Source: Okamejei kenojei (taxonomy: Eukaryota). From it: 64,000 nucleotides of DNA. Under the pieces are notes generated by a model that saw only the letters and a list, made by a program, of their open reading frames with translations, had not been told where the DNA came from and ran no database searches. The stretch's first letter is position 1. Every line of letters begins with the position of its first letter. This document shows positions 4,483 through 61,100 of the stretch, piece after piece. The stretch lies in contig CM069145.1 in NCBI GenBank assembly GCA_035221665.1, positions 21,762,001 to 21,826,000 of the forward strand, given 5' to 3'. The position numbers were made by a program, and so were the translations under genes.

Positions 4483-6089
4483 ATTCATACCCCTTGAATA
4501 TTTCCACATTTTGTCACGTTACAACCACAAACGTAAATGTATTTTATTGGGATTTTATGTGACATAGACCAACACAAAGTGGTGCATAATTGTGAAGTGG
4601 AAGGAAAATGATACATGGTTTCCACATTGTATTACAAATAAAAAACTGAAAAGTGTGGTGTGCAAAAGTATTCAGCCCCCTTGGGTCAATACTTTGTGGA
4701 ACCATCTTTCGCTGCAATTCCAGCTGCAAGACTTTTGGGGTATGTCTCTACCAGCTTTGCACATCTAGAGACTGACATTTTTGCCCATTCTTCTTTGCAA
4801 AATAGCTCAAACTCAGTCAGATTGGATGGAGAGTGTCTGTGAACAGCAATTTTCAAGTCTTGCCAGAGATTCTCAATTGGATTTGGGTCTGGACTTTGAC
4901 TGGGCCATTCTAACACATGAATATGCTTTGATCTAAACCATTCCATTGTAGCTCTGACTGTATGTTTAGGGTCGTTGTCCTGCTGGAAAGTGAACCTCCA
5001 CCCCAGTCTCAAGTCTTTTGCAGACTCTAACATGTTTTCTTCCAAGATTGCCCTGTATTTGGCTCCATCCATCTTCCCATCAACTCTGACCAGCTTCCCT
5101 GTCCCTGCTGAAGAAAAGCATCCCTACAGCATGATGCTGCCACCACCATGTTTCACAGTGGGGATGGTGTGTTCAGTGTAATGTGTAGTGTTAGTTTTCC
5201 GCCACACATAGCGTTTTGCATTTAGGCCAAAAACTTCAATTTTTGTCTCATCAGACCAGAGCACCTTCCTCCACATGTTTGCTGTGTCCCCCACTTGTGG
5301 CAAACTGCAAACGGGACTTCTTATGGTTTTGTTTCAACAATGGCTTTCTTCTTGCCACTCTTACATAAAGGACCGATTTGTGGAGTGCACGACTAATAGT
5401 TGTCCTATGGACAGATTCTCCCACTTGAGCTGTGGATCTCTGCAGCTCCTCCAGAGTTACCATGGGCCTCTTGGCTGCTTCTCTGATCAATGCTCTCCTT
5501 GCCCGGCCTGTCAGTTTAGGTGGACAGCCATGTCTTGGTAGGTTTGCAGTTGTGCAAACTCTTTCCATTTTCGGATGATGGATTGAACAGTGCTCTGTGA
5601 GATGTTCAAAGCTTGGGATTTTTTTTATAACTGATCCCTCCTTTAAACTTCTCCACAACTTTATCCCTGATCTGTCTGGGGTGTTCCTTGGGTTTCATGA
5701 TGCCCAAGGAACATTGTTTATTCACTAATGTTCTCTAACAAACCTCTGAGGCCTTCACAGAACAGCTGTATTTATACTGAGATTAGATTACACACAAGTG
5801 GACTCTATTTACTAATTAGGTGACTTCTGAAGGCAATTGGTTGCACTTGATTTTATTTAGGGGTATCAGAGTAAAGGGGGCTGAATACATTTGCACGCCA
5901 CACTTTTCAGTTTTTTATTTGTAAAAAAAAATTGAAAACCATGTATCATTTTCCTTCCACTTCACAATTATGCACCACTTTGTGTTGGTCTATCATATAA
6001 AACCCCAATAAAATACATTTACGTTTGTGGTTGTAACGTGACAAAATGTGGAAAAGTTCAAGGGGTATGAATACTTTTGCAAGCCACTG
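4483..6089 (-). mobile_element. Tc1 (DD34E) DNA transposon, IR/DR type
   Basis: ~210-bp TIRs ending ...GCCACTG followed by TA (6090-6091); inner direct-repeat motifs at ~4663-4680 and ~5876-5895. Confidence 0.92.
4686..5698 (-). pseudogene. Frameshifted Tc1 transposase
   Basis: MKPKEH start at 5698; ARRKPLL; FQQDNDPKH...WPSQSPD.NPIENLW with 34 residues between D and E. Confidence 0.9.
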
Positions 6090-8050: not shown

Positions 8051-8339
8051 CAATGAGCTGTTAAGCAGACCAGTGTCTTACTCTTGCGCCCTCAAAAATG
8101 CTCATTCTTGATCCAAATAGAGTGTCAAAGAAATGAAGATGTAAGGTGTATGATGATGACTTACATGCATTAACAAAGTTATTTTGGGTACATTGTCCTT
8201 CTTATTAAAGACTTTAAACAGATGGTGGCAGGTTAAAGTGATGATGCTGCCAGAAGGGGGTTGGTAATGGAAGGGATGAAATTTCAGTGAAGAATTGAAA
8301 GGATTTGCAGGCCACAAATCAGTTAAATTGGATTGCAGC

Positions 8340-8645
8340 CTCTTGCCCAGAATAGGGGAGTGGAGAACCAGAAGGCAAAAGTTTAAGGTGAAGGTGGAAC
8401 AATTTTATAGTAATCTAAGGGGTAACTTTTTCAGATAAAGGGTGGTGGGTGCATGGAAAAAAGGAGGAGGTAGTTGGGGTAGGGATTGTTGCAACATTCA
8501 AGAAGCAATTAGATAGGTACATGGATAGGACAGATTTATTGGATATGGGCTAAATGAAGGCAGCTGGGACTAGTCTGGATGGGACCATGATCGGTGTAGG
8601 TAAGCTGGGTCAAAGGGTCTGTTTCCACACTCTATGGCTCAATTA
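8340..8645 (+). mobile_element. CR1 3' fragment
   Basis: Degenerate ORF2 end and 3' UTR. Confidence 0.7.
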
Positions 8646-10542
8646 CTATAAATTGGTATCAATTTGCTTCGGGAATTCTTCTCAAATATTTTATGCTGGG
8701 CCACAACAATTTTACTGCAACCACTATTACACTTAAAATTGAAATCATCATTTTATAAAGTGATGCATAAAAGCAATAATTATGTGTAAATAATTTAACT
8801 TGCTCTTATTTATTGATCAGTACCCAACACTGTAAATGATCCGAATGAAAATATTTGGGATATCTTTTGGTCACATGAAGATTTGTTCTGATGTTAAAGC
8901 TTGTGATGGAAAACATTCTGCAAATCATCTGTATCAGTAGATTGCATGTAGAGCACGACAGTGGTAGAGTTAATGTCAAGCATACATTATGCAGTACTAG
9001 ATTTTAAATTAGTCTGCAGCATGAAAAAGAGATGCAGGTGTAATAGTGTATGGGTTTCTAAGATTCATGAGTGGTGCCAGGAAGCTATTTCTAAACCAAA
9101 TAGAGAATTGGGATGCGTAACCAAGATATCATCATATGAATATAAAAGTCTGCAGTTAGATCCCAATTATGGAAAGTTCACCCTTAGATGTGAAGAGATA
9201 GAGAAAATAATCCTGGAAGTAAGTCAGAGGTAACCCAATAGATGAATACGTAGTTTAATAAAACCCCTAACTACGGTATTTTGATAGGCTTAGGGAATTG
9301 AGTCTTTTAATTTCAGTAAAGTATACACTTCGGGGCACTTTGTGTCATTAAACGATTAGAATAACTTCCCATCTTTTGCATCAAGTGCCATCACTATAAA
9401 TGGTAAAGTAGCTACTGTAGATTATGTTCCCCGAGGAGGATAATATCATAGAATGTAAAAGATAGATGCATGGTTGGATATTGTACACGCCATCACAGTT
9501 ATACCTTTGATGCCTCTGCAAATTGGACATCATTTTTATAATTTTTTTTATTGGTATGAATCTTAGAGATATTATTAGTTTCCGTTTCTCTCAGAGCGAT
9601 TATTCGGCAATTGATGAGCAAGGAACATGAAAGAATACGCGGTCTAATTTCACTGCAGCTTAATGGACCAGTTAGCTTTCACTTGTTGTCTTTTCACTAA
9701 CGTTGTGGGGGTTTTTTATGAGCCCATATCCTCGCCCTGTTTCTGACAAGGTGCTTTCATGTCATTGCTCTGGAAGTTACAGTGAGGAATAATGGTGAGG
9801 TTACTAGCACTGACTATGGGAAAGGTAATAAACTGAACATTAAATTGTGGGATACAACTATTGACAATTAAACACTGAAATCCAAACATTTCTGGTCTTC
9901 CAAGAGATGCTCTATTTTGCAGCCTTCACTTAGCAAATCCCTCTTTTTTTGTGGTCCCTCATCCAAATTGACTTTATCAAAATCCCAATCATCCATCAAT
10001 TATCCCAAACCTCCATACGGCAAAATCCCAATTATCCATCCAAAGCAGAGGTAGATCAAATGATGAGACCTTGTCATCTCACCCACACACATTTCTCATA
10101 AAATCAAATTGTATTGCCTGTTAAATATATTAATGAATGTATTAAATAGTGCTGCACTATCTATGATTACAATTAAAACACAAAGTACTTGCGCTATAAC
10201 TCCAGGATAAGCGCTCAACTAAGCCCAAAACCAACGTATTATCTAACTAAATAAACAAACTTACAATAAATGACTCCATATGCAAAACAACCCCACAAAA
10301 AAACAGCTACCTACATATTTATTAGCTCTTAAAAAAAAACGAATCCTGTAGATGCAAGTATATCATTGGAGTTATCAAGTGGGCACCTCCCTTCATTGGT
10401 GTTTCATTGAATTATACCCACGACACCTTGGGAAGGTTCAACAGTTGGTTCTGGTATCCCAGAACAACCCCCCTCCTCAATACCTGTTCTCACCACCTAT
10501 GCTATTAGTATCTACTAAACAAAAGACGCCACAGCCAATTAG

Positions 10543-10722: not shown

Positions 10723-10958
10723 TTTTTACCCAAATCCATAACGTTCCATTTGGAGAAGTGGGTTTTTTTTTTGAGGAAGCCGCTGATTGGTGGAAGAGGA
10801 CCCGAGGAAGCAGCTGATTGGGTGCAACCCCGGGTTTACTATTTTACATTTCTGCCTTCTGGGAGTGAGGGATTCTGGGAGTTAGGGATTCAGTATTTAG
10901 TAGTAAAGTTTAAAGGATAAGTTTTTGTGTTTTTTTTTTAGTAATTTGGGAGTAAGGT

Positions 10959-11907
10959 ATGGCAGTAGAGATTGGCCCCGTGGTTTGTTCAGCCTGCAAC
11001 ATGTGGGAGATCAGGGAGATGGTCGGTGTCCCTGGTGACTACGTTTGCAGGAAGTGTGTCCAGCTGCAGCTCCTGGCAGACCGCATTGAACGATTGGAAC
11101 TGCGGCTGGATTCATACTGGAGCATCCACGATGCGGAGAAAGTCGTGGATAGCACGTACAGTGAGTTGGTCACACCGCAGGCGAAAGGTAGGAGGACAAG
11201 AAGGGAACGGGTGGCCAATAGCCAGCAAAGCAGTAGGCAGGTAGTGCAGGAGTCCCCTGCGGTCATCTCCCTCCTAAACAGGTATACCATTTTGGATACT
11301 GTTGAGGGAGATGGCTCATCAGGGGAATGCAGCAGCAGCCAGGTTCATGGCACCATGGGTGGCTCTGCAGCACATGAGGGGGGAAAAAAGAGGGGAAGGG
11401 CAATAGTAATAGGGGATTCAATTGTCAGGGGAATAGATAGGCGTTTCTGCGGCCGCAAACGAGACTCCAGGATGGTATGTTGCCTCCCTGGTGCAAAGGT
11501 CAGGGATGTCACTGAACGGCTGCAGAACATTCTGGAGGGGGAGGGTGAACAGCCAGTTGTCGTGGTGCATGTTGGCACCAACGATATAGGTAAAAAAAGG
11601 GATGAGGTCCTACAAGGTGAATTTAGGGAGCTAGGAGATAAACTTAAAAGTAGGACCTCAAAGGTAGTAATCTCCGGATTACTACCAGTACCACGGGCCA
11701 GTCAGAGTAGAAATAGGAGGATAATGCAAATGAATACGTGGCTTGAAAAAGTGGTGCAAGGGGGAGGGATTCAAATTTTTAGGGCACTGGGACCAGTTCT
11801 GGGGGAGGTGGGACCGGTACAAACAGGACGGTTTGCACCTGGAATGGAATGGAACCAATGTTCTTGGGGGAGTGTTTGCTAGTGCTGTCGGGGAGGATTT
11901 AAACTAA
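10959..11907 (+). CDS. CR1 ORF1: zinc-finger/leucine zipper plus SGNH-esterase-like domain (one frameshift)
   Basis: CxxC...CxxC; GDSIVR; VHVGTND; DGLHL appears after a shift at the A5 run 11746-11750. Confidence 0.85.
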
Positions 11908-14895
11908 TGTGGCAGGGGGATGGGTACAAGAGCAGAGAGGCAGGAGGGTGTAAAATGAGGGTAGAAGCATTAGGTAGCAAGGTGAAAGGTAAAAGTGGCA
12001 GGCAGACAAAACCAGGGCAAAAATCAAAAAGGGCCACTGTTCAGCAAAATTGTATAAGGGGTAAATGCGTTGTAAAGACAAGCCTGAAGGCTTTGTGTCT
12101 CAATGCAAGGAGTATTCGTAATAAGGTGGACGAGTTGAACGTGCAGATAGATATTAATGATTATGATATAGTTGGGATCACGGAGACATGGCTCCAGGGT
12201 GACGTAGGCTGGGAGCTGAACATCCAGGGATATTCAATATTCAGGAGGGATAGAGAGAAAGGAAAAGGAGGTGGGGTAGCGTTGCTGGTTAGAGAGGAGA
12301 TTAAAGCAATGGAAAGGAAGGACATTAGCTTGGAGGATGTGGAATCGGTATGGGTAGAGCTACAAAACACTAAGGGGCAGAAAACGCTGGTGGGTGTTGT
12401 GTACAGGCCACCTAACAGTAGCAGAGAAGTTGGGGATGGTATCAAACGGGAAATTAGAAATGCGTGCGACAAAGGCAAAACAGTTATAATGGGTGACTTC
12501 AATCTACATATAGATTGGGTTAATCAAATTGGCAGGGGTGCTGAGGAAGAGGATTTTTTGGAATGTATGCGGGATAGTTATCTAAATCAACATGTAGAGG
12601 AACCAACGAGAGAGCAGGGCTATTTTAGACTGGGTTTTTGAGTAATGAGGAAGGGGTAATTAGCCGTCTTGTTGTACGTGCCCCCTTGGGCAAGAGTGAC
12701 CATAATATGGTTGAGTTCTTCATTAGGATGGAGAGTGACATTGTTAATTCAGAAACAATGGTTCTGAACTTAAAGAAAGGTAACTTTGAGGGTATGAGAC
12801 GTGAATTGGCCAAGATTGACTGGCAATTAATTCTAAAAAGGGTTGACGGTGGATATACAATGGAAGACATTTAAAGACTGCATGGATGAACTACAAAAAT
12901 TGTTCATCCCAGTTTGGCAAAAGAATAAATCGGGGAAGGTAGTGCATCCGTGGATAACAAGGGAAATCAGGGATAGTATCAAAGCAAAGGATGATGCGTA
13001 CAAAGTAGCCAGAAAAAGCAGCATACCAGAGGACTGGGAGAAATTCAGAGACCAGCAGAGGAGGACAAAGGGCTTAATTAGGAAAGGAAAAATAGATTAT
13101 GAAAGAAAACTGGCAGGGAACATAAAAACTGACTGCAAAAGTTTTTATAGATATGTGAAGAGAAAGAGGTTAGTTAAAACAAATGTAGGTCCCTTGCAGT
13201 CAGAAACAGGTGAGTTGATCATGGGGAACAAGGATATGGCGGACCAATTGAATAACTACTTTGGTTCCGTCTTCACTAAGGAAGACATAAATAATCTGCC
13301 TGAAATAGCAGGGGACTGTGGGTCAAAGGAGGAATTGAGTGAAATCCAGGTCAGTCGGGAAGTGGTGTTGGGTAAATTGAATAGATTAAAGGCCGATAAA
13401 TCCCCAGGGCCAGATAGGCTGCATCCCAGAGTACTTAAGGAAGTAGCTCAGGAAATGGTGGATGCATTAGTGATAATCTTTCAAAACTCTTTAGATTCTG
13501 GAGTAGTTCCTGAGGATTGGCGGGGAGCAAATGTAACCCCTCTTTTTAAGAAGGGAGGGAGAGAGAAAACGGGGAATTACAGACCAGTTAGTCTAACATC
13601 GGTAGTGGGGAAACTGCTAGAGTCAGTTATTAAAGATGGGATAGCAGCACATTTGGAAAGTGGTGAAATCATTGGACAAAGTCAGCATGGATTTACAAAA
13701 GGTAAATCATGTCTGACGAATCTTGTGGAATTTTTTCGAGGATGTAACTAGTAGCGTGGATAAGGGAGAACCAGTGGATGTGGTATATCTGGACTTCCAG
13801 AAGGCTTTCTACAAGGTCCCACATAAGAGATTAGTATACAAACTTAAAGCATACGGTATTAGGGGTTCAGTATTGATGTGGATAGAGAACTGGCTGGCAA
13901 ACAGGAAAGCAAAGAGTAGGAGTAAACGGGTCCTTTTCACAATGGCAGGCAGTAACTAGTGGGGTACCGCAGGGCTCAGTGCTGGGACCCCAGCTATTTA
14001 CAATATATATTAATGATCTGGATGAGGGAATTGAAGGCAATATCTCCAAGTTTGCGGATGACACTAAGCTGGGGGGCAGTGTTCGCTGTGAGGAGGATGC
14101 TAGGAGACTGCAGGGTGACTTGGATAGGCTGGGTGAGTGGGCAAATGTTTGGCAGATGCAGTATAATGTGGATAAATGTGAGGTTATCCACTTTGGTGGC
14201 AAAAACAGGAAAGCGGACTATTATTTAAATGGTGGCCGATTGGGAAAAGGGGAGATGCAGCGAGACCTGGGTGTCATGGTACACCAGTCATTGAAAGTAG
14301 GCATGCAGGTGCAGCAGGCAGTGAAAAAAAGCGAATGGTATGTTAGCTTTCATAGCAAAAGGATTTGAGTACAGGAGCAGGGAGGTTCTACTTCAGTTGT
14401 ACAGGGTCTTGGTGAGACCACACCTGGAGTATTGCGTGCAGTTTTGGTCTCCAAATCTGAGGAAGGACATTATTGCCATAGAGGGAGTGCAGAGAAGGTT
14501 CACCAGACTGATTCCTGGGATGTCAGGACTGTCTTATGAAGAAAGACTGGATAGACTCGGTTTATTACTCTCTGGAATTTAGGAGATTAAGAGGGGATCT
14601 TATAGAAACTTACAAAATTCTTAAGGGGTTGGACAGGCTAGATGCAGGAAGATTGTTCCCGATGTTTGGGGAAGTCCAGGACAAGGGGTCACAAAGCTTA
14701 AGGATAAGGGGGAAATCCTTTAAGACCGAGATGAGAAAGACTTTCTTCACACAGAGAGTGGTGAGTCTCTGGAACTCTCTGCCACAGAGGGTAGTTGAGG
14801 CCAGTTCATTGGCTATATTTAAGAGTGAGTTGGATGTGACCCTTGTGGCTAAGGGGATCAGAGGGTATGGAGAGAAGGCAGGTACGGGATACTGA
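11907..14895 (+). CDS. CR1 ORF2: APE endonuclease plus reverse transcriptase (frameshifted)
   Basis: [53 protein letters not shown] across ORFs 11907-14895. Confidence 0.92.
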
Positions 14896-49834: not shown

Positions 49835-51040
49835 TTTCACCACTAACTTCCATTCGGCATTCAAATTCATCTGGACCATTTCCGACATCTCCCTACCGTT
49901 TCTAGACCTCACAATCTCCATCGCAGGTAACAGACTACTGACCGACATCTATTACAAACCCATTGACTCCCATGGCTATCTGGACTGCACTTCTTCCCTC
50001 CCTGCTTCCTGTAAGGACTATCCCCTACTCCCAATTCCTCTGTCTACGCAGCATCTGCACCCAGGATGAGGTGTTCCAAACCAGGGCATTGGAAATGTCC
50101 TCATTCTTTAGGGAACGGGGATTCCCCTCTTCGACTATAGATGAGGCTCTCACCAGGGTTTCCTCCATATCCCGTAACTCTGCTCTCACTCCCCATCCTC
50201 CTACTCGTAACAAGGACAGTGTCCCCCTTGTCCTCACCTTCCCCCAACCAGCCGTCACATACAACAGATAATCGTCCGACATTTTCGCCACCTCCAATGG
50301 GATCCCACCACTAGCCACAACTTCCCATCTCCTCCCTTTTCAGCTTTCCGCAGAGACCGCTCCCTCCGTAACTCCCTGGTCAATTCGTCCCTTCCCACCC
50401 AAACCACCTCCTCCCCTGGTACTATCCCTTGCAACCACAGGAAATGCTACAAGTGTCGCTTTACCTCCCCCGTTGACTCCATCTAAGGACCCAAGCATTC
50501 TTTCCAGGTGAGGCAGCGGTTCACCTGCACCTCCTCCAACCTCATCTATTGCATCCGCTGTTCTAGGTGTCAACTGCTCTACATCGGTGAGACCAAGCAC
50601 AGGCTTGACAATCGCTTCGCACAATACCTCCGCTCAGTTCGCATTTACCAACCTGATTTCCCGGTGGCTCAGCACTTTAACTCCCCCTCCCATTCCGAAT
50701 CCAACCTTACTGTCCTTGGCCTCCTCCATGGCCAGAGTGAGTGCCACCGCAAATTGAAGGAGCAGCACCTCATATTTTGCTTGGGTAGTTTACACCCCAG
50801 AGGTATGAACGTTGACTTCTCCAATTTCAGGTAGTCCTTGCTTTCTCCCTCCTTCCCCTCCCCTTCTCAGCTCTCCCACAGCCTTCTGTCTCTGCTTCTT
50901 CCTTTCTTCTTCCCATCCCCCCCTCCCCCCCACCCCCACATCAGTTTGAAGAAGGGTCATGACCCGAAACGCCACCTATTCTTTCGCTGCATAGATGCTG
51001 CCTCACCCACTGAGATTTTCCAGCATTTTTGTTTACCTTT
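49835..51040 (+). mobile_element. Penelope-like element (Neptune-like), RT C-terminus plus GIY-YIG endonuclease
   Basis: LPFLDL, IYYKP.DSH, IPYSQF, Cys-rich linker, NLIYCIRC..C..LYIGET, HFNSPSH; terminal hammerhead-like core at ~50946-50972. Confidence 0.9.
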
Positions 51041-54769: not shown

Positions 54770-55030
54770 TGTGTAGGAAGAAACTGCAGATGCTGGTTTA
54801 AACCGAAGATAGACACAAAAAGCTGGAGTAACTCAGCAGGATCCGAAACCTCACCCATTCCTTCTCCCCAGAGGTGCTGCCTGTCCTGCTGAGTTACTCC
54901 AGCATTTTGAGTGTGAGGTCTGAAGAAGGGTCTCAACCCTAAACGTTGCCTATTTCCTTCGCTCCATAGATGCTGCCTCACCCGCTGAGTTTCTCCAGCA
55001 TTTATGTCTACCAGCATTTTGAGTCAATCT
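54770..55030. mobile_element. Composite Penelope-derived elements
   Basis: Fold-back plus a second terminal repeat with CTGAAGAAGGG core at 54920. Confidence 0.7.
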
Positions 55031-56055
55031 TAGGTTTTTAGTAGCATTTAAATGTTTTAAAGTTGTATTGCTAGAAAAAATCATTACAGATTGTGGCATG
55101 AATAAATTTGAGATTTAAGCTCTTTACTGCAGACAAAAAATACTGAGAACAAATACAGACTGAAATGCACAAATTTCATTCTTTCTCCAAATTAAGTAAC
55201 AAATTAGTAATTAATGTAGTTTTCATCAAAAATGTCCTATTATTTAAATGCAAATAGGAGGTCACATTTTATAGGTAAATGCAGCAGCGTTTGTTGAAGT
55301 CTAGTAATGAAATGTCACTTAATCAGGATTCATAAGGCAGGAATGTCATATGACAAACTTTAACTTTGATGCCTCCATCAACTTTACAACTGGGTTGCCC
55401 TTATCATGGGTTTCTGGCATGAACTATATTAAATCCTAGCCCTTATTCGAATCTCACCCAACCAATCAGATCTCACAAAACAGCATACAATGGAGATGTA
55501 GACAACTGTTGGTCTTCACAGGCATCTCTATAGGCTGAAATAAATGATTCTGGTGCAACAAGGATCAAGGCTCCTTATGGGCCTTCTGCTTCGGAACAAA
55601 AAAATAACATTTGCTTTACAAGATTTCACTGAGGGGCCTTTAGAGTCTTTTTAAAGTCTAAGAATCATGTTATTGAGGGTGAGTCCCTTTACTGCCTAAA
55701 ATGGCAGTGATGGGCAGGAATGGACTGAGTTAATCACCTTTACAATTGTACAGTTGCCTTGTTCCTACAGGGGAAGTGGTTTTAATAAATTCACAAAAAA
55801 ATTCACTACAATTCTCAGAAGTTACTTTCCTGTCAGAAATTCTCAAGCTTATTTTTTTGTAATGTGGAATAATACAAACCCATTCTTAATTAAAAAGTAG
55901 TGATTTGTTCTCAAATCATCAATGTTTTAGTCTGATTATCTACCCCAGAAATATTACAAATCTTCTTCATTGCAAGCCCAAACTGATGCTCCCAGCCGGT
56001 ATTGTTCCCAAAAGAGTTTGTTTTATCAATAAACCTTGATTTGCTCTATACATAA

Positions 56056-56191
56056 TCTTCTTCTTTCGTGTGGCATGCACAGCCTAAAGTTGTTGGACAA
56101 CTTGTTCTATATGATCTTCCGTTTGTGCACGTCGAGTTGATTGCATTAGTCGAAACAGGCGGACCACATGAAGGTTGCAATCTTCCACCCC
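56056..56191 (-). mobile_element. 136-bp ribozyme-headed SINE-like retroposon
   Basis: 5' HDV-like fold, 3' stem, ...CACGAAAGAAGAAGA tail, flanks ATACATAA / ATACTTATAA. Confidence 0.7.
56139..56191 (-). ncRNA. Minimal HDV-like self-cleaving ribozyme
   Basis: P1 GGGUGG/CCGCCU, P2 GAUUGCA/UGCAAUC, P3 ACC/GGU, L3 UUCAUGU, G for P1.1, U-UUCG-A as P4, J4/2 CUAA. Confidence 0.8.
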
Positions 56192-56849
56192 ATACTTATA
56201 ATGAATTAGTACAATTAGATCTGTAAAAGCAAATATAAAAAAGCCAGGTAACACAGCTTTCTTTTTGACAACATATGCTTCATGTTCAAAAGAATGTTAA
56301 TGGAAAAGTTTGTTATTAACCTTTAGAGTATTTTAAATGCAGTTGATGTCTGGATGAATTGCCTGCAATATGTTAGTTTAACCTCAGAAAAGCAAATGCT
56401 GGAACTTTCTCTGCTGAGGCTTTCATTGCATCTTTAATGGAACACATAGAGTCTGCCAGTAGGGGGAGATGCCTCACTGTCTACAGCCAACTCGAATAGT
56501 TGGCCTCCAACTTCAAATCCTCGTCTTTCAACCATTTGTTCCTTATCAAGGTTCAAGATTTGGGTGTTTTTCAATGAGCTATTATTACTATGAATTAGCA
56601 ATTGTACCCAAACAACAGCAGCATTGGAGGCTTCATCTTAGATAAAGGCTTTACTGCATATTTAGAAAGAAAATTGTATTTAATTGAGGCATTAATGAAA
56701 TATAGCTCATTTTTTAAAACTGCAGCAATTTTCCTAAATATAATGCCCTTTGTGGATTTCGTCCTTAAGCCCTTGTGAATACTGTCAAAGAGATTAAACA
56801 TAGAACTTGATGATTTATTTTAGAAATGACCTTACAGATTGTTAGGGTT

Positions 56850-59834: not shown

Positions 59835-60452
59835 ACAGATAGACATAAAATGCTGGAGTAACTCAGCAGGACAGGCAGCAGCTCTGGAGGGAAGGAATGG
59901 GTGACGTTTCGGGTCAAGACCCTTCTTCAGACTGGTCGGCGAAAGGGAAACAAGAGATATATACAATGATGTAGAGAGATAAGTAACAATGAATGAAAGA
60001 AGTGCAAAAAAGTAACCATGATAAAGAAAAAGGGCCATTGTTAGCTGTATGTTGGGTGAAAATGAGAAGCTGGTTTGACTTAGGTGGGGAAGGGATGGAG
60101 AGAGAGGGAAAGCCATGGTTACTTGAGGTTAGATAAATCAATATTCATACCACTGGGTTGTATGCTGCCTAAGCGAAATATGAGATGTTGTTCTTCCAAT
60201 TTGAGTTTAGCCTCACTATGACAATGGAGGAGGCCTCGGACAGAAAGGTCAGTGTGGGAATGGAAAGGAGAATTAAAGTGTTTAGCAACTGGGAGATCGG
60301 GTAGGTCCAGGTGGACAGAGCGAAGATGTTCGGCGAAACGATCGTCCAGTCCACATTTGGTCTTGCTGATGTATAACAGTCCACATCTTGAACAACAGAT
60401 ACAGTAGATGAGGTTGGAGGAGGTGAAAGTGAACCTCTGCCTCACCTGAAAG
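59835..60452 (-). mobile_element. Penelope-like element, GIY-YIG to 3' end
   Basis: ORF 60119-60655: NLIYCICC..C.LLYI.KT...HFNSPFH...EEQHLIFRLG; hammerhead core at 59930-59903. Confidence 0.88.
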
Positions 60453-60462
60453 GTAATGGTTA

Positions 60463-61100
60463 AGGGCCTGTCCCACCAGCATGCGCCTGCATGCGGCGAG
60501 TGCGACCAAACCGGCAGCGGGGGTCGCGCGGAGGTTGGGTGAGTGGTGCGACGTGGCGCGAATTTGGAGCGAAGTTGGAGCGAAGTCCACGGTAAGTTCG
60601 CAAGGACAGAGAGGGTCACACAGAAAGGGACACGGAGGCACACAGAGAGGGTCACGGAGGCACAGAGAGAGGGTCACGGAGGCACATATAGAGAGGGTCA
60701 CGGAGGCACACAGAGAGGGTCACGGAGGCATACAGAGAAGGGCACGGAGGCACAGAAAGGGTCATGGAGGCACACAGAGAGAGGGTCAGGGAGGCACACA
60801 GAGAGGGTCACGGAGGCACACATAGAGGGGCATGGAGGCACATATAGAGAGGGTCACGAAGGCACGACGCCGAGGCTGTGCGTAACGCGTCGAGGCGGCT
60901 GCGGGCCGACAGGCTGTTGCCACGCGGAATTTATGAACGGTCAGTTTTTCGGAGCCCCGTGCGATGTCGGGACCAGCTCCGCACAAATCTATACGGCTCC
61001 AGCGATCGAAGTGGGACCGGCCCCGCAAGGCCGGACGGCTCAAGCGACCACGTTAGGTCGCGCTCACCGCATGGAGTCGCATACAGGTGGGACAGGCCCT
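60463..61100. mobile_element. PIF/Harbinger-type MITE, same family as 3428-4003, opposite orientation
   Basis: TIRs, TTA target duplication (60460-60462, 61101-61103), expanded ~22-bp minisatellite. Confidence 0.88.

Follow-up and report, generated by a model that had tools for sequence, protein, structure and literature searches.

A high-copy retroposon of Okamejei kenojei, apparently assembled from both termini of a Vingi-type LINE and headed by a predicted P4-less HDV-like ribozyme

The general design of the element described here, an internally deleted LINE headed by a ribozyme, is already known. The R2 SIDEs of Drosophila (Eickbush and Eickbush 2012, PMC3414825) are described as likewise short and internally deleted, with a 5′ HDV-like ribozyme joined to the 3′ end of the LINE, and as moved in trans by target-primed reverse transcription (TPRT). 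According to that account they are rare, site-specific in 28S rDNA and dependent on an RLE-type LINE (PMC3414825), whereas the mini family of this study is dispersed in more than 13,000 copies through a vertebrate-sized genome, is of APE type and has a much smaller head. NARTc, RIME and SIDER of trypanosomatids, from the L1Tc/ingi clade, are reported to begin with the 77-nt Pr77 head, which includes P4 and has promoter activity (PMC4035085); the predicted ribozyme head of the mini family is 54 nt, without P4. Both architecture and clade are shared with the non-autonomous internal-deletion derivatives of Vingi-1_EE and with the bipartite LINEs of Kojima (2018, PMC5786205); Vingi derivatives of bipartite build and deletion derivatives with a ribozyme at the head are thereby on record already. 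A P4-less fold of similar size is reported for the minimal HDV-like and theta ribozymes (Kienbeck et al., PMC10879173), but nearly all reported cases are from gut phages, frequently next to tRNAs, and no hits are reported for the eukaryote set of that study (human, mouse, protists), while the present head stands at the front of an animal retroposon. HDV-like ribozymes have been described from lamprey and other animals (PMC13635239), and some non-autonomous SINEs use them, according to a review (PMC6765202). A limited search of the literature found no published report of a Vingi ribozyme or of a P4-less one in an animal retroposon. The Ingi-type set of Ruminski from 2011 may include Vingi elements already.

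The window, that is, the whole stretch of DNA analysed, comprises 64,000 nt of Okamejei kenojei (contig CM069145.1, positions 21,762,001 to 21,826,000). On its minus strand lies a whole element of 136 bases (56056..56191) that belongs to subfamily A of a non-autonomous Vingi-type retroposon. The predicted HDV-like ribozyme head covers 56139..56191, 53 nt here as compared to 54 nt in the family, and the predicted cut falls between 56192 and G1 at 56191. Followed 5′ to 3′ along the minus strand, the head consists of the P1 5′ strand (56185..56191), the P2 5′ strand (56176..56182, 7 bp with 56145-56139), a 3-bp P3 with a 7-nt L3 (56163..56175), a P1 3′ strand that is one C shorter than in the family (56157..56162), a J1/4 G with a 6-nt linker replacing P4 (56150..56156), J4/2 (56146..56149) and the P2 3′ strand (56139..56145). 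The C at 56149 within J4/2 is putatively catalytic, by likeness to other HDV-like ribozymes. On the same strand, and by sequence match to LINE copies, 56121..56191 corresponds to the 5′ end of a LINE (family nt 1-72), and 56056..56100 to its 3′ end, including the last ORF codons, the stop (56086-56084), the 3′ UTR and the GAA-repeat tail. Between these two portions is a rearranged junction (56101..56120), peculiar to A and B among the subfamilies, which may have originated as a short duplication.

All of the ribozyme parts named in the first-pass annotation of this DNA are found at their places on the minus strand when the sequence is read directly, and a descriptor search of both window strands returned a single match (56190-56139) with the same helices and the same C56149. 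P1 had been suspected of being one pair short, and it is: the family P1 has 7 bp with G1.U as the first pair, and the 7-nt P1 3′ strand is kept in 28 of 29 other top copies, while the window copy lacks one C. The guess that L3 had suffered CpG decay was also right, since 80 of the 85 ungapped copies sampled have C at position 24, where the window copy has T (56168). Since a 6-bp P1 cleaves poorly in HDV ribozyme work, the window copy, with its altered L3 as well, is likely to be weak or dead as a ribozyme. A flank duplication is present as described, but rather than the ∼8 bp proposed, the best reading pairs 11 nt on the 5′ side (56192..56202) with a 9-bp copy on the 3′ side that has a 2-nt gap (56048..56056), close to the most frequent length in the family.

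No host exon was identified in the window: among 67 splice-bounded candidates and 48 scanned segments, only GIY-YIG and DDE transposon domains were matched, so that cleavage of host pre-mRNA by this particular copy is unsupported. Remnants of a broken LINE, presumably CR1-like, of a DDE_3 transposase and of GIY-YIG (Penelope-like) elements occur at 10956-14895, 4686-5694, 50487-50834 and 60119-60719. A long inverted repeat at 54810-54915 gives weak Rfam hairpin matches and has arms that recur at other loci; it is probably a common repeat. About 270 bp upstream of the element, a stretch at 56453-56470 resembles what we take to be a CTCF motif.

The genome that holds the window is 2.76 Gb in size, and its other repeats seem to resemble those known from cartilaginous fishes. 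A query with the element gave 2,257 candidates, of which 40 were scored, and the 39 copies other than the window element are 94-98% identical to it. A 19-nt head pattern has 13,534 matches in the genome, a lower bound on copy number, and none in the control; a single intact 54-nt head sequence occurs exactly 1,259 times. Contigs of three organisms hold the element as well, 8,314-8,858 pieces of it in each run, and the loose ends cluster at 56191/56192 and 56056. No empty site was seen in these contigs of relatives, in which flank contigs extend over 23 nt of the element, not enough for a bridge. Among the first 90 consecutive head matches on one contig (C1), selected for exact positions 10-28, there are 47 copies of subfamily A, which includes the window copy, 32 of subfamily B, and 11 left unassigned. 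A 7-bp P1 starting at G1 is present in 64 of these 90, as opposed to the 6 bp of the window copy, and the full fold, with every part, in 45; scaled to the 13,534 head matches, this corresponds to about 6,800 (roughly 7,000) fold-intact copies. In subfamily B the putative catalytic C of J4/2 sits in a CpG, so that any activity should decay more quickly in B than in A.

The marks of TPRT are all found in the family: target-site duplications (TSDs), a simple-repeat tail and 5′-truncated copies. Of the 52 copies whose start is intact and whose tail can be recognised, 41 have a TSD, compared with 7 of 520 in a control with swapped flanks; the mode is 11 bp, partly shared with the GAA tail. Together with the number of head matches, this bears out the earlier description of a high-copy mini-retroposon. 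The annotation had also placed the 5′ end of the element at the predicted cleavage site and expected other copies to begin at the same G. The TSD ends exactly before the predicted G1 in 29 of the 41, and within 1 nt of it in 35. The base preceding G1 is T in 38 of 75 copies (29% in flanks) and G in 9 of 75; the bias to T could reflect endonuclease preference, microhomology or a −1 preference of the ribozyme.

A uniform start at G1 is likewise accounted for by a head that is chiefly an internal Pol II promoter starting there, the ribozyme fold being secondary, or kept for protein binding, 5′-end protection or LINE translation. Capped transcripts are expected to leave a cap-derived extra G at the 5′ junction, but exactly four G are found at the start in 65 of 73 copies and an extra G in only 8 (against 23% G in the flanks), and so there is no excess of the cap type. 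A promoter would also not predict that the J4/2 C, L3 and the G1 pair are kept in six families with different helix sequences (see below). Although Pr77 of L1Tc is reported to be both promoter and ribozyme (PMC4035085, PMC3383444) and R2-type ribozyme folds are said also to protect 5′ ends (PMC13708176), a head that serves mainly as a promoter is judged unlikely.

The annotation called for a search for an autonomous LINE with the same ends, and a 3.0-kb Vingi-type APE-RT LINE was found. It was reached from a decayed Vingi-like copy among the endonuclease matches, through related families, to a copy (L220) that ends in the last 44 bases of the element, comprising the last ORF codons, the stop, the 3′ UTR and the GAA tail; a search with L220 gave 57 matches. 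One of the LINE copies, L234, is full-length at 3,044 bp, begins with the head and ends with the tail of the mini element, has an 8-bp TSD, and is 87.5% identical to family nt 1-72 over 72 nt. Three others (L231, L233, L247) match the element head at 93-95% from nt 4 or 11 to nt 72. The head is located before the ORF in L232 and L247, and is inverted in L231, L233 and L240. Such 5′ inversions are frequent in Vingi-like copies, the head being flipped relative to the ORF in these three, in L237 and at nine CPEB3-like loci. Common to the mini element and the LINE are the first ∼72 and the last ∼44 bases, and LINE 3′ ends have 121 exact matches in the genome compared with the 13,534 head matches (controls 0). 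Other candidates for the parent were discarded: the top 30 PF14529 loci belong to a family that we take to be I/Nimb-like and lack the head; the Vingi-like families V1-V3 differ in head and 3′ UTR; and matches to an exclusion pattern were only subfamilies and truncated copies. One presumably I/Nimb-like LINE (L042, G000:C2:28226757-28230098) has a 1,276-aa open frame and is possibly recently active.

By domain content and by N- and C-terminal motifs that we take to be characteristic of the clade, the partner LINE is provisionally classed as Vingi-type. Pfam APE and RT domains are found in L234. A database protein of 1,019 aa, which has no domains other than APE and RT and is 63% identical in the endonuclease, can be aligned with aa 31-1019 of L232; being collinear, it leaves no room for RNase H. 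The Vingi clade, now used for gene writing, is described as having a compact single ORF with APE and RT and without RNase H (PMC13708176), and the partner LINE, at 3.0 kb with these two Pfam domains and a collinear protein lacking RNase H, fits that description. No unbroken ORF was present among the translated copies (L220, L232, L234).

With both its 5′ and 3′ ends matching one LINE, the mini element is, on sequence grounds, an internal-deletion derivative of this Vingi-type LINE of the same genome and not a tRNA SINE, and its predicted ribozyme would thus have been inherited from the LINE. Subfamily C shows the joint most plainly, with LINE nt 1-96 joined cleanly to the LINE 3′ end, while subfamilies A and B share ∼nt 1-72 with the LINE, followed by the rearranged joint. 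Of the two kinds of partner first suggested, a Vingi/Ingi-type or an RTE-type LINE, it is the Vingi/Ingi type that is supported, by a LINE having the same two ends, and not the RTE type. The size, tail and copy number are those of a SINE, and one could imagine a classical SINE with a small-RNA head, but this, like the chance fold considered below, is extremely improbable. ARAGORN finds no tRNA, in keeping with the absence of tRNA boxes noted before, there is no Rfam small-RNA match, and the head is the LINE's own 5′ end, which refutes a SINE-like nature in the tRNA/7SL/5S sense. Median pairwise identity is 93.8% in subfamily A (n=37), 92.4% in B (n=17) and 90.5% among LINE 3′ ends (n=15). A copy of subfamily A sits inside a LINE copy (L246), and the tail variant of A is rare: of the LINE ends listed, only 8 among the first 100 have it. 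Subfamily A being younger than the LINE copies seen, its actual driver is not among them.

The first 54 nt of the family fit an HDV-like fold, with a 7-bp P1, P2, a 3-bp P3, a 7-nt L3 and the nested double-pseudoknot order. The descriptor for the fold was written after the element had been seen; in dinucleotide-shuffled windows its compact form was matched in 0 of 30 and a loose form in 2 of 30, which argues against a fold by chance. All six families compared have the J4/2 C before the P2 3′ strand, as do 80 of 85 ungapped copies of the mini family. The P4 helix is absent, with 7 nt between P1 and the putative catalytic C. This segment had been read as P4 reduced to a UUCG tetraloop, which is doubtful, since its CG differs in 10/85 and 21/85 copies and the linker of a second mini family is equally long but of other letters; it looks like a P4-less linker. 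Pseudoknot-blind energy folding, which cannot model this topology, gave no signal over shuffles (head z +0.57 and −0.04), and Rfam ribozyme families, RF00622 included, matched neither the window copy (E≤10), nor four intact copies, nor the LINE.

By sequence, one C-G pair is possible for P1.1, and a ribozyme with a single P1.1 pair and no P4 could be slow, as are natural ribozymes of the CPEB3 type according to one report (PMC13635239). The compact head might on these grounds be a vestige, too slow after the loss of P4, with the mini element having spread without cleavage. This appears quite improbable, since the autonomous LINE has the same compact head, the linker length recurs in the second mini family, and P4-less phage ribozymes are reported as active in vitro (PMC10879173). 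Moreover, the changes between subfamilies preserve the fold: the heads of the LINE, A and B differ at three positions, in J1/2, in a P1 pair (U-A to U.G) and in J4/2 (CUAA/CGAA), and all three differences are compatible with it.

Five other Vingi-type families have the same topology with different sequence, in heads of 64-95 nt. The covariation analysis that had been proposed finds the pairing kept, with two-sided changes at 12 of 16 pairs over six families, each represented by one copy selected with a descriptor that itself demands pairing (9 of 28 loci passed). Heads lost from this comparison through decay include that of L234 and the CPEB3-like heads of L322 and L323. When strands are swapped between families, they pair in 221 of 390 cells. 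Vingi-like LINE families other than the parent number at least five in this genome (L153-L161, L162-L170, L211-L218, L178 and L219), and every one of them has a GAA tail and a distinct HDV-like head. The second mini element, of ∼160 bp, is found at L342-L345, L347 and L349, from about 1513 in locus orientation. It is flanked by TSDs and ends in a GAA tail; its head, P4-less and just as compact but of different sequence, scores 36-40 bits on RF00622 and has a P1 that seemingly starts one G short.

A search of the genome with RF00622, the model of the mammalian CPEB3 ribozyme, gave 42 matches among 59 scored candidates, 30 of them over the cut-off (35 bits) and the best at 66.8 bits; there were none in 14 control genomes. 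Vingi-like proteins are matched at 11 of the 30 loci, in two cases (L326 and L346) in sense and downstream of the CPEB3-like head, and in nine as ORF pieces on the opposite strand, adjoining the head. These Vingi-type heads very close to the mammalian model (L321-L341, L346, L348, L350) fall into at least three sequence groups, and that of L323 shares 56 of 67 letters with the Rfam consensus (manual count). The mini family itself has the L3 of the Rfam consensus, and for the CPEB3 ribozyme, too, a single P1.1 pair is predicted, as published (PMC8233481). It differs from the mammalian ribozyme in the sequences of P1, P2 and P3, in lacking P4, in being mobile rather than single-copy and in having no RF00622 match. 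We lean, if only slightly, towards a broader proposal: that the Vingi group begins with HDV-like ribozymes, that in this vertebrate one P4-less version has spread some 7,000 self-cleaving sites of 54 nt, intact in fold, which could cut host transcripts in sense, and that the CPEB3 ribozyme, said to be without relatives other than in mammals, derives from a domesticated Vingi 5′ end. The CPEB3 likeness could also have arisen by convergence on a constrained core.

Given the two-part origin, copy number, TSDs, start at G1 and pairing kept across families that are seen in this genome, a probability of roughly 0.78 is assigned to the reading of the element as a non-autonomous retroposon made from the ends of a Vingi-type LINE, with a P4-less HDV-like ribozyme head that frees a unit-length RNA. 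By analogy with R2 SIDEs and NARTc/L1Tc, a copy of the element would be transcribed by read-through, and the 54-nt head would cut just before G1 to leave a unit-length RNA with a 5′-OH. The protein of this LINE would then bind the RNA in trans at its 3′ end (the last codons, 3′ UTR and GAA tail) and insert it by TPRT primed on the GAA tail. A good fold does not always imply activity, as some well-folded SIDER ribozymes are reported as inactive in vitro (PMC4035085).

The mini element would put the minimal cis parts for mobilisation at about 72 + 44 nt. If the head cleaves, Vingi joins the ribozyme-headed LINEs, and the head would be among the smallest natural HDV-like ribozymes, P4-less and in an animal. 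The sister Vingi heads provide a concrete candidate origin, and an outgroup, for the CPEB3 ribozyme. Cleavage would also mean thousands of sites with natural single-change variants, through which one could test what the element does to host RNA and whether copies lying in sense within introns are selected against.
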